Source: Escherichia phage ECO95 1-6-1. From it: a stretch of DNA of 2,154 nt. Where the stretch lies: the sequence record OR845540.1. One strand, 5' to 3'. Below are positions 112-1,939 of the stretch, one piece after another. Every line of letters starts with the position of its first letter. Positions within the stretch are counted from its first letter, which is position 1. The notes beneath the pieces are model-generated. The model saw nothing but the letters and a program-made list of their open reading frames with translations. It was not told the origin of the DNA and made no database searches. Position numbers and translations under genes: made by a program.

Positions 112-1235
112 GCTGCGGCCTCCAGACTGGCATCCAGTAACAGGCTGATAGTGATTTGCAGCGGCACTTCATACGTGCGTACCACAATGTAAATATCCAC
201 CGCCTTCTTGCTCTTCCAGACAATAGAGACATCTCCATCCTGCGGCGGCTTCACCTCTCCCGGAAACGACACACCGTTAATGTTGGCCGCCGTGGACATT
301 TCGCGCAGTGGGCGGGCAAACAACGTCTGGTGTGCCGCGATGCTGCCCGGCGTACTGTTCAGCGAACGATCGGCAATTTTACCGATAGCCAGCAGGCGGA
401 CACGACGGGCGGCCTTATCCACAATACGTAGCGTCTCAATGGACTGATAATCACCCCCTTCCACATCCAGCGTACGTCCGTCAGCCCAGTAAAAGCCGTC
501 ATAATCCGGATACCACATCGGCACGCTGTAGCGCTGCGCTTCCAGCGCTTTAAGGGTGGCCAGCTCCAGTGTTTTCCCGGTGCCATCTTCCGGCAGTTCA
601 TCGCTGCCCAGATTCAGCAACGCCCCGGTTTTCACCCTCGCCGGACTGTCAGCAACCGTCACCGCCCGGTTACACAGGCGACCGGCCAGCACGCCCGGTT
701 CATTCCCCCACAGACGCGGAACCAGCTGAACCGCTTTCTCTGCAATACCCTGCTGAAGGGTGGACAGACGTTTCAGATAATCCGCCTGGGCTTCATCCTC
801 CTGCATACCCTGTACGGCCAGGATGAACCATACCCAGCGCCCGTATTGCGCAATCAGTTCAGATCTCAGCGTTGCCGCCTGGTTAATCTGTTCTTTTGCC
901 GCCACATCATCCGACAGCACCACGCCTTCCACCGAGCAGGAAACCTGTGCAGCTTTGACGGCATCCACCCACGCGCCCGGCTCACTGTCTGCGGCCAGTA
1001 CATGAACAAATCCCCACCAGTTCTGGCCGGCGTTCGCCATTGCCGCCAGTACATCGCTTTTTAACGGGCTGTTCCCCTCGCCCAGTAGTGCGTTAAAGTC
1101 ACTCTGTGCATTAACAGCCAGCGTTTTACCCACATTTTTGGTACCCATACCGATAAACAGCAACGTGCGCTCCACCTCGTTGGTTTCACCCAGTAACTGG
1201 TTTACCTGGTTAACGTTCACGGTTGGCCAGGTCAT
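108..1235 (-). CDS. 375-aa phage structural-module protein, function unassigned; candidate tail sheath-like protein (hypothesis)
   Basis: Complete 1,128-nt ORF with ATG at 1235..1233 and TGA at 110..108. The upstream minus-strand sequence reads AAGGGGAAAAC-ATG (SD at plus 1240-1246). It is the longest ORF in the window, with ATGA junctions at both ends. The C-terminal third is rich in beta-strand-like hydrophobic runs (VDIYIVVRTYEVPLQITISLLLDA). A motif DGFYWADGRT reminds me of a conserved region in contractile-sheath proteins, but that is memory-based and not verified by alignment. Confidence 0.85.
   Translation of the reverse strand: MTWPTVNVNQVNQLLGETNEVERTLLFIGMGTKNVGKTLAVNAQSDFNALLGEGNSPLKSDVLAAMANAGQNWWGFVHVLAADSEPGAWVDAVKAAQVSCSVEGVVLSDDVAAKEQINQAATLRSELIAQYGRWVWFILAVQGMQEDEAQADYLKRLSTLQQGIAEKAVQLVPRLWGNEPGVLAGRLCNRAVTVADSPARVKTGALLNLGSDELPEDGTGKTLELATLKALEAQRYSVPMWYPDYDGFYWADGRTLDVEGGDYQSIETLRIVDKAARRVRLLAIGKIADRSLNSTPGSIAAHQTLFARPLREMSTAANINGVSFPGEVKPPQDGDVSIVWKSKKAVDIYIVVRTYEVPLQITISLLLDASLEAAA
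119..123 (-). promoter_or_regulatory. Shine-Dalgarno (GGAGG) for the truncated downstream gene
   Basis: Plus-strand CCTCC at 119-123 is GGAGG on the minus strand, 7 nt upstream of the ATG at 111..109. Confidence 0.65.
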
Positions 1236-1939
1236 GTTTTCCCCTTAATATCCTGCGCCTTTACATTCCAGCCAAAGCCTATAGCCTGAAGCTGACGCGC
1301 CAGCGCTTTATCAAATTCATCGTCATTCATGCCCAGAAATACGCGGGCAGGAAGATCCACAGTCCAGCTGGTTTTCACTGCTTTACCACTCAGCTTTCGA
1401 ATCAGTAATCCGGCCTGGCTGTATGGCATCGTCCGCGTGATATCGCCCAGCGTGGGCTTTTTCCAGCGTTTTCCGGTTCTCACCCGATACCCCAGCGCAC
1501 GCAGTTTTTTAGCCTGGGCAGGTGTCGCCATTTTTCCGGCGTCCGCCTTACGTGGCTGACTGCTGCGGCTGACCTTTACCCGCATTCCGTTTTGTTGCGC
1601 ATAACCTACGGTTCCTGCCGGAACCGGCGTTTCCCCGTTCCGGTACCCGCCGCCCTGCAAATAGATCCGTACGGCCTGAATCTCAGGCATTTCACGGATA
1701 TGAAGCAGCTTTGGCAGGTTACGCAGCATCTTCCCTTTGCGTTTTGTCTTACGTCCCGGCCATTTCTGGCCGTCCGGGGATTCCTGGTTACGAACATGTC
1801 TTTTTGCCGCAGCAATTACGCCATATTTCGCCAGACGCCAGATCAGCCGCTGGCGCTTCTGCGGTGGCAACTCCATACTGGCCAGCGCCTTACGTAATTC
1901 AGTCAGCTGTTTTTTATTCAGCTCGCCACCGGCTATCAT
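1232..1939 (-). CDS. Very basic 235-aa protein; tentatively phage virion morphogenesis / tail completion-like (Mu G / P2 S type), unverified
   Basis: Complete ORF with ATG at 1939..1937 and TGA at 1234..1232. A GGGG Shine-Dalgarno sits at 1947..1944, 4 nt before the ATG. The start overlaps the upstream stop and the stop overlaps the downstream start, both as ATGA. By my count the protein has about 50 K+R against 16 D+E. The product call rests on my recollection of the family's C-terminal region (here ...PARVFLGMNDDEFDKALARQLQAIGFGW...) and on position in a structural operon; no search was run. Confidence 0.8.
   Translation of the reverse strand: MIAGGELNKKQLTELRKALASMELPPQKRQRLIWRLAKYGVIAAAKRHVRNQESPDGQKWPGRKTKRKGKMLRNLPKLLHIREMPEIQAVRIYLQGGGYRNGETPVPAGTVGYAQQNGMRVKVSRSSQPRKADAGKMATPAQAKKLRALGYRVRTGKRWKKPTLGDITRTMPYSQAGLLIRKLSGKAVKTSWTVDLPARVFLGMNDDEFDKALARQLQAIGFGWNVKAQDIKGKT
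1240..1246 (-). promoter_or_regulatory. Shine-Dalgarno (AAGGGGA) for the 375-aa gene
   Basis: Minus strand reads AAGGGGAAAAC-ATG, with the G-run at 1244..1241 and a spacer of about 5 nt. The site lies within the 3' end of the 235-aa gene. Confidence 0.65.

Follow-up and report, generated by a model that had tools for sequence, protein, structure and literature searches.

Tail completion proteins and the locus under study

To our knowledge, tail completion proteins (TCPs) were for decades the least understood component of the phage neck and tail, and one of them was located in the virion only in 2025. These proteins are essential, are needed for head-tail joining or infectivity, and are unseen in most neck reconstructions (PMC11784142, PMC11099176). 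The present work concerns a long and strongly basic protein of this kind, encoded in a stretch of 2,154 nucleotides from Escherichia phage ECO95 1-6-1 (sequence record OR845540.1); the whole stretch is called the window below. The protein of 235 amino acids (aa) is very probably the TCP (Ne1; P2 gpS / Mu G 'virion morphogenesis' family) of a phage of the Peduoviridae that resembles ESSI-2 and is read here as a Salmonella prophage, with the anatomy described below. According to the structural model, its extra length is a conserved, folded and basic insertion between the 'QQNG' and 'PARxFLG' motifs, made up of a basic linker and an alpha/beta domain of ~55 aa.

P2 gpS (150 aa; PF05069, TIGR01635) is essential and, like the TCP studied here, is encoded directly downstream of gpR. 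The two proteins are homologous over the N-terminal ~96 residues (31% identity). Both have the basic extended loop and the same K+R fraction, and the 'HQFG' and 'PARPLLG' motifs of P2 gpS have counterparts in the TCP. Unlike the TCP, P2 gpS has no folded basic domain, no 9-aa loop (residues 95-103) and no 15-aa C-terminal extension. The gene order differs as well: in P2 a terminator and the baseplate operon come after R and S, and the sheath and tube genes lie elsewhere, whereas the TCP gene here is followed by the sheath gene. No solved P2-type neck with gpS was found in the literature. Mu gpG (156 aa) is matched by PF05069 and PHROG_26 like the TCP; it differs in being acidic (net charge -3, isoelectric point (pI) 5.6), in lacking the insert and in being encoded in the head module.

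The TCP of the cos phage lambda, gpZ (192 aa), is also longer than the minimal fold. In gpZ the extra domain is inserted at the apex of the TCP fold (PMC11661146). This insertion is described as a beta domain, whereas a helix, a hairpin and two further helices are predicted here.

A TCP monomer in the neck lumen is known only for phage 80alpha (PMC11661146). In the 80alpha/SaPI1 neck, one gp51 molecule lies in the lumen between the DNA end and the N-termini of three tape measure proteins, with which its hairpin forms a sheet (PMC11661146). The apex of the gp51 loop caps the terminal base pair via Y78 and F81, R87 holds the last 3' phosphate, and the protein presents a positive face to the DNA (PMC11661146). 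With 115 aa (HK97 gp10-like, PF04883; PDB 9mu2 chain P), gp51 is half the size of the ECO95 1-6-1 protein and lacks the inserted domain. 80alpha is a siphophage with headful packaging, and gp51 is placed in phrog_5 as opposed to phrog_26 for the TCP. In SPP1, gp16.1 is required for head-tail joining and for correct DNA routing (PMC11099176).

The same length, gene order and insert as in the TCP are found in orf22 of HP1/HP2 (231 aa) and in the TCPs of phiO18P (228 aa) and of ESSI-2, ESSI2_ev040 and ESSI2_ev239 (234-235 aa). The insert is ~73-93% identical to that of the TCP in ESSI-2-type phages and ~37-48% identical in HP1/HP2 and phiO18P; tblastn searches with the insert gave E values from 1e-1 down to 5e-36 for these proteins. 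In databases all of these carry the label 'tail completion or Neck1 protein'. No experimental study of the long-form TCPs of HP1/HP2, phiO18P or ESSI-2-type phages was found in the literature.

Family assignment

The protein is matched over residues 3-235 by PHROG_26, 'tail completion or Neck1', at E 3.1e-33, and the same PHROG holds P2 gpS and Mu G. BLASTP of the TCP against P2 gpS gave E 4e-6. Alignment of a profile of 24 close homologues with P2 gpS by hhalign yielded a probability of 91% over residues 23-93. Homology to the founding member and a match to a phage-specific profile were thus both found. The C-terminal half of the core (a short helix with a glycine, the 'PARPxLG' motif and the C-terminal helix) is present in the alignment, which gives it no separate E-value. 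Gene position is that of the P2 gpS / Mu G family, as a gpR-type terminator adjoins the TCP in a P2-like late operon. Among the predicted viral structures of BFVD, the matches were virion-morphogenesis, TCP and HK97-gp10 proteins. The assignment to the tail completion family, which had been proposed in an earlier note made from the sequence without database searches, is therefore upheld.

Three results count against this assignment. PF05069 (Phage_tail_S) scored 23.8 bits, below its cut-off of 24.3, with residues 12-75 aligned to positions 3-75 of the 148 in the profile; TIGR01635 (tail_comp_S) reached 15 bits against a cut-off of 37.65; and a Foldseek search of the PDB found nothing. The curated cut-offs of the P2 gpS / Mu G family are missed because the insertion splits the match. 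In the homologue from phiO18P, the Pfam match ends at profile position 112/148, which is the same place as the insertion. Across the aligned subfamily, PF05069 was matched by 112 of 116 sequences at E 0.01 or better. A match to PF04883 (HK97 gp10-like) was not found in the TCP, and sequence or profile similarity to gp51 was not detected either.

Predicted structure of the protein and place of the insertion

A deep alignment was compiled from the query and 115 full-length representatives (116 sequences), and P2 gpS was added to it for mapping the insertion. The AlphaFold2 (AF2) model derived from the 116-sequence alignment had a predicted local distance difference test score (pLDDT) of 89.8 and a predicted template modelling score (pTM) of 0.80. 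An earlier AF2 run with 24 sequences at at least 67% identity is usable for the insert only. Within the insert, the shallow and deep runs were near-identical in secondary structure, the last helix ending at residue 183 versus 184.

In the multiple sequence alignment, P2 gpS is gapped opposite query residues ~125-190 (~66 aa). The gap is flanked by motifs common to both proteins: V111-GYAQQNG118 corresponds to P2 'IASVHQFG110', and D195-LPARVFLG203 to P2 'DYPARPLLG'. Between these motifs P2 gpS has 14 residues (LSEENRKDGKKIDY) and the TCP ~78; the corresponding P2 loop is LSEENRKDGKKI. An inserted segment had been one of the proposals of the earlier note, and such a segment does exist: the ~66 aa absent from P2 gpS hold the second basic cluster of the protein, and residues 123-192 carry a charge of +16.

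The insertion opens with a variable linker and continues with a domain (residues 138-190) having the consensus PATRxQAKxLxxLGYK...P..KWI..NL..GQAG.IIR.L. The predicted elements are a helix at 140-148, a hairpin at 153-155/158-160 and helices at 164-170 and 173-184. In the deep run, the mean pLDDT of 10-residue blocks was 89-98 over residues 131-190. The segment 138-192 is the most conserved part of the TCP, with a mean top-residue frequency of 0.51 against 0.29-0.48 elsewhere; Q142, A143, L146, G150 and A176 are conserved in at least 92% of the sequences, and W192, just past the insert, in 96%. The notion of a disordered segment is thus not borne out, since the block in question is predicted to be folded and is the best conserved part of the protein. 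A broader form of this idea ascribes the extra length to basic sequence that is disordered or of low complexity, or else supposes an erroneous family call or an artefactual fusion of two genes. Such an explanation could draw on the Pfam match, which covers only residues 12-75 and lies just under the gathering score, and on the mean pLDDT of 48 in the shallow-alignment AF2 run. Against the match to PHROG_26 and the block scores of the deep run, it is extremely improbable and has been largely refuted.

The remainder of the protein belongs mostly to the shared core. The N-terminal helix region (residues 9-51) aligns to residues 17-50 of P2 gpS. In the extended loop, R63, K64, K68, K70 and K77 are each K or R in at least 76% of the 116 sequences (76-94% for the first four). 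The first basic cluster, PGRKTKRKGKMLRNL, belongs to the conserved core, where it is aligned with an equally basic loop of P2 gpS, RKKTGRVKRKMFAKL. The view that the basic clusters represent extra sequence consequently fits the second, which lies in the insert, and fails for the first. G118 is conserved in 99% of the same sequences, R199 is invariant, and P197, F201 and G203 are conserved in 84-88%. Two parts are specific to the clade. The loop at residues 95-103 is glycine-rich in the ESSI-2 clade (GGGYRNGET). In the C-terminal extension, at least 50% of the representatives have gaps at residues 221-227, 234 and 235; the extension is kept among close relatives and is absent from most of the subfamily.

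Similarity of the insert to other proteins

Neither the isolated C-terminal 160 aa nor the isolated insert had a match in Pfam up to E = 10. When 63 diverse inserts were compared with Pfam, scattered and inconsistent single matches appeared, none of them reproducible. Searches of PDB sequences returned nothing meaningful, whether the query was the protein itself or a profile of the family or of the insert; with the insert profile the best E value was 0.16. A candidate likeness to GemA (residues 122-160; GemA/DUF1018) was rejected as a chance match: its Pfam E value was 0.79, it was shared by 1 of the 116 members, and hhalign against Mu GemA gave 0.3%. The nucleic-acid-binding segment suggested in the earlier note finds no backing here, as no recognised nucleic-acid-binding family matches the insert.

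Free-standing or otherwise fused copies of the insert were not found, and the apparent short copies were truncated gene calls. Several short matches (P0154, P0175, P0179, P0212, P0225) were considered as independent domain contexts and were discarded as truncated or frame-shifted calls of the same gene. What is mildly new here is an inserted domain with no family assignment, placed apparently at the functionally interesting apex of the TCP fold. It is doubtful, though conceivable, that this ~55-aa basic alpha/beta domain is an undescribed domain confined to TCPs that grips the end of the packaged genome, possibly a cohesive end, inside the neck.

Distribution and conservation of the long form

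A total of 372 close homologues was found; the 120 listed aligned end to end and did not differ in length from the TCP, except where a few genes had been called shorter or longer. A profile search of 1.84 billion cluster representatives yielded 398 relatives, of which 237 had E values of 1e-10 or lower. All 115 full-length sequences (at least 200 aa) in the best 150 of the 398 were 206-252 aa long and were matched across the insert. The insertion site holds 64-94 aa with a charge of +7 to +19 in all 116 aligned sequences.

The protein had been thought unusually long. It exceeds P2 gpS and Mu G by ~85 aa, and to this extent the claim stands; within its own subfamily the length is typical. Two outcomes had been named in the earlier note as telling against its proposal, namely homologues of the same length aligning end to end with no insertion, or the lack of any significant family match. 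The former was observed by half, as homologues of the same length do align end to end but have the insert; the latter was not observed. The TCP is a standard member of a populous and already annotated subfamily, and neither its length nor its charge is unusual there.

In tblastn searches with the insert alone against 50,697 phage records, 71 records were matched. Wherever annotation was available, the matches lay within TCP genes of Peduoviridae; the sole exception was a chance match of E = 8 in an unannotated record. The insert-bearing phages comprise those of the ESSI-2 type, Salmonella SW3 and SI7, Yersinia 324, Aeromonas phiO18P and the Vibrio K139 type, as well as Pasteurella F108, Haemophilus HP1 and HP2, Pseudomonas phi3 and Pseudoalteromonas phages. 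The GC content of the insert is 0.571 and that of the rest of the TCP gene 0.533. A recent acquisition of the insert was considered and rejected, because the insert is common to the whole diverse subfamily and is therefore ancient. Since the short forms P2 gpS, Mu G and 80alpha gp51 have no insert, the more parsimonious history has the segment inserted long ago in the HP1-like branch.

Two database entries deviate in length. A Salmonella enterica entry (P0080) has 257 aa, 22 more than the query, of which it covers only 74%, at 100% identity. A frameshift or a different stop in a copy of the TCP gene is the probable cause. The BFVD match Q8W746, Orf22 of K139, has 166 aa, yet the TCP genes of the K139-type phages VPUSM 8 and VcP032 contain the insert; the K139 Orf22 gene model may be truncated.

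Charge of the protein

The composition given in the earlier note (about 27 K and 23 R against 16 D+E in 235 aa, net charge near +34) proved exact: the protein has 27 K, 23 R, 8 D and 8 E, with a net charge of +34 and a pI of 11.09. The two basic stretches singled out there are likewise real. They lie at residues 61-79 (PGRKTKRKGKMLRNLPKLL) and 143-161 (AKKLRALGYRVRTGKRWKK), and both are local charge maxima, the 20-aa windows peaking at +8. Residues 1-122 contribute +18 and the remainder beyond residue 192 contributes 0. The high charge therefore has two sources, the family-wide basic extended loop and the insert.

The description of the protein as extremely basic holds against its neighbours, which are acidic (-10 for the sheath, -14 for the gpR fragment) and among which the TCP is an outlier. 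As a mark of this particular protein it does not hold, for basicity is a family trait. The K+R fraction is 0.213 in the TCP and 0.207 in P2 gpS (+14 in 150 aa), and the net charges of the long-form representatives run from +15 to +48 (median +33), their median pI being 11.2. In the P2/HP1 branch a strongly basic protein is the rule; the acidic Mu gpG shows that this does not extend to the whole family.

Gene neighbourhood and related phages

According to the list of open reading frames (ORFs) and the profile scans, the window contains four genes, all on the minus strand. They are listed in Table 1 together with the parts of the TCP.

Table 1. Genes of the window and parts of the TCP, with positions in the window
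Feature	Position	Strand	Evidence or remark
gpR-like tail terminator, 3' part	1936..2154, continuing past window edge	minus	PF06891 P2_Phage_GpR 26.9 bits (cutoff 25); phrog_65 'tail terminator'
Tail completion protein (TCP, P2 gpS type; Ne1), complete coding sequence	1232..1939	minus	235 aa + TGA stop; ORF list
Tail sheath, DUF2586 type, 375 aa	108..1235	minus	PF10758 E 8.8e-139; phrog_907 'tail sheath' E 1.9e-170
Tube gene, first codon only in window	108-111 junction	minus	downstream of sheath
TCP: N-terminal helices of core, residues 9-51	1787..1915	minus	predicted by AF2: H9-21, H26-51; block pLDDT 87-97 over 11-60
TCP: extended basic loop, residues 52-78, with PGRKTKRKGKMLRNLPK	1706..1786	minus	aligns to P2 gpS PRQQQSVRKKTGRVKRKMFAKL; family feature
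TCP: beta-hairpin, short helix, 'QQNG' motif, residues 79-124	1568..1705	minus	predicted by AF2: E79-84, E89-94, H108-117, E119-124
TCP: clade-specific 9-aa loop, residues 95-103	1631-1657	minus	gapped in at least 50% of representatives
TCP: variable basic linker starting the insertion, residues 125-137	1529..1567	minus	least conserved internal stretch; absent from P2 gpS
TCP: conserved basic domain of the insertion, predicted folded, residues 138-190	1370..1528	minus	predicted helix, beta-hairpin, helix, helix
TCP: C-terminal core, residues 191-220: strand, 'DLPARVFLG' motif, C-terminal helix	1280..1369	minus	predicted by AF2: E191-196, H206-220
TCP: clade-specific C-terminal extension, residues 221-235, GFGWNVKAQDIKGKT	1235..1279	minus	block mean pLDDT 64 and 55

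Stop and start codons overlap as ATGA at three junctions. The TGA stop of the gpR-like gene overlaps the TCP start at 1936-1939, the sheath ATG overlaps the TCP stop at 1232-1235, and the third overlap joins sheath and tube at 108-111. A Shine-Dalgarno-like GGGGA is present at 1943-1947, ahead of the TCP start. The overlaps at consecutive junctions, together with this motif, suggest translational coupling of the tail-completion and tail-shaft genes. The sheath, of a small type, is named only 'DUF2586 domain-containing protein' in RefSeq, though PHROGs calls it tail sheath with the E value given in Table 1.

Positions 1-1878 of the window are 100% identical in DNA to Salmonella phage S.Kent 1-2-1, whose 6.3-kb record ends there. 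The window DNA is ~85% identical to that of the Escherichia phages ESSI2_ev040, ev015 and ev129 and 77% identical to that of Cronobacter phage ESSI-2 (Peduoviridae). Prophage matches to the window were found in 37 of 5,426 complete E. coli genomes. In the annotated ESSI-2-type phages, the orthologous coding sequences are 234-235 aa long and are called 'tail completion or Neck1 protein'. The order adaptor, terminator, TCP, sheath, tube and lysis genes is found in phages of the ESSI-2, HP2 and phiO18P types, and among the phages examined the long-form TCP accompanies this HP1-type gene order.

Proposed role in the neck

The explanation that accounts best for the data is a long-form TCP with a basic, folded insert, acting as a plug in the neck lumen with the insert near the DNA end; a probability of about 0.75 is assigned to it. 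We infer the virion location, the stoichiometry and the DNA contact of the TCP by analogy with 80alpha gp51. A single copy would probably lie in the neck lumen, its helices and beta-hairpin docking on the N-termini of the tape measure protein. The loop apex would cap the end of the packaged DNA, aiding head-tail joining, and the TCP would hold or position the genome end until ejection. The basic inserted domain might add contacts to the genome end.

The place of the insert in such an arrangement follows from a comparison of motifs. In gp51 (A76-AYSGFLEFG85-TR87YMEAEPF94) and in the TCP ('GYAQQNG118 ... PARVFL'), a short helix ending in glycine, a hydrophobic 'PF/xFL' element and the C-terminal helix occur in the same order. 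On that correspondence, which is one of motif and topology, the insertion would replace the 7-residue gp51 loop containing R87, directly after the DNA-stacking helix. That the inserted basic domain contacts the DNA terminus is a tentative suggestion, held at rather less than even odds.

Several points weigh against the proposed placement. The mapping of the insert relative to the DNA contacts of gp51 is without support from any sequence statistic, and hhalign of the TCP family against gp51 gave a probability of <1%, whether a single sequence or the 83-sequence alignment was used, in global or local mode; removal of the insert made no difference. No known DNA-binding family among those compared (GemA/DUF1018, HeH/SAP-like, HTH and dsRBD in Pfam and PDB searches) was matched by the insert. 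Accounts of the location of TCPs differ: T5 p143 was assigned to the tail tip, and several neck reconstructions show no TCP (PMC11784142). The lumen of neck and tube is acidic (PMC11661146), and the basic residues of the TCP could therefore bind protein rather than DNA.

The last point leads to the main rival explanation. It accepts the anatomy described above and takes the insert for a protein-protein module, which would anchor the TCP to the acidic inner wall of adaptor, terminator or tube or to the tape measure protein, with no DNA contact. The lack of similarity to any DNA-binding family agrees with it, and so does the conservation pattern: the best conserved residues listed above, W192 just past the insert included, are mostly non-basic, and only ~4 positions of the insert are K or R in at least 70% of sequences, which fits a structural or interface role with diffuse charge. 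On the other side, the insertion point adjoins the motif that would match, by topology, the DNA-stacking helix of gp51, and P2 and Mu do without the inserted domain despite homologous neck proteins. An anchoring module of this kind is considered somewhat unlikely.

Another possibility is ejection of the TCP, or of its basic insert, together with the DNA. In the infected cell the ejected protein would then protect or pilot the genome end and might, for instance, keep host exonucleases away from the cos end. The 80alpha TCP does sit on the leading DNA end (PMC11661146), SPP1 particles without gp16.1 eject DNA that does not reach the cytoplasm (PMC11099176), and the TCP is strongly basic overall. 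However, gp16.1 supplied in the host failed to rescue SPP1 particles without gp16.1, which indicates a role in the particle (PMC11099176). No similarity of the TCP to known end-protection proteins was found. An action in the cell is accordingly improbable, and a plug in the neck lumen, with the insert near the DNA end, is preferred.

Annotation and biological meaning

Many orthologues of the TCP are labelled only 'hypothetical protein', including a cluster of 1,020 members at 94% identity. The prophage copies in E. coli RefSeq genomes probably bear the same label. It is likely that this annotation gap extends to the whole long-form subfamily and that orthologues remain 'hypothetical protein' because the internal insertion pushes their PF05069 and TIGR01635 scores below the cut-offs. 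For genome annotation, the gene is a routine structural one, and the orthologues called hypothetical are clearly tail completion proteins.

The existence of a large, conserved subfamily with an extra basic domain, apparently situated in the loop that caps the DNA in 80alpha, provides a contrast to the short P2 form. This contrast between long and short TCPs could be used to probe the role of the TCP apex and is a modest lead. If the insert does grip the genome end, the subfamily would offer a handle on a recent proposal in which the TCP links the DNA end with the tape measure protein and governs the release of the DNA.

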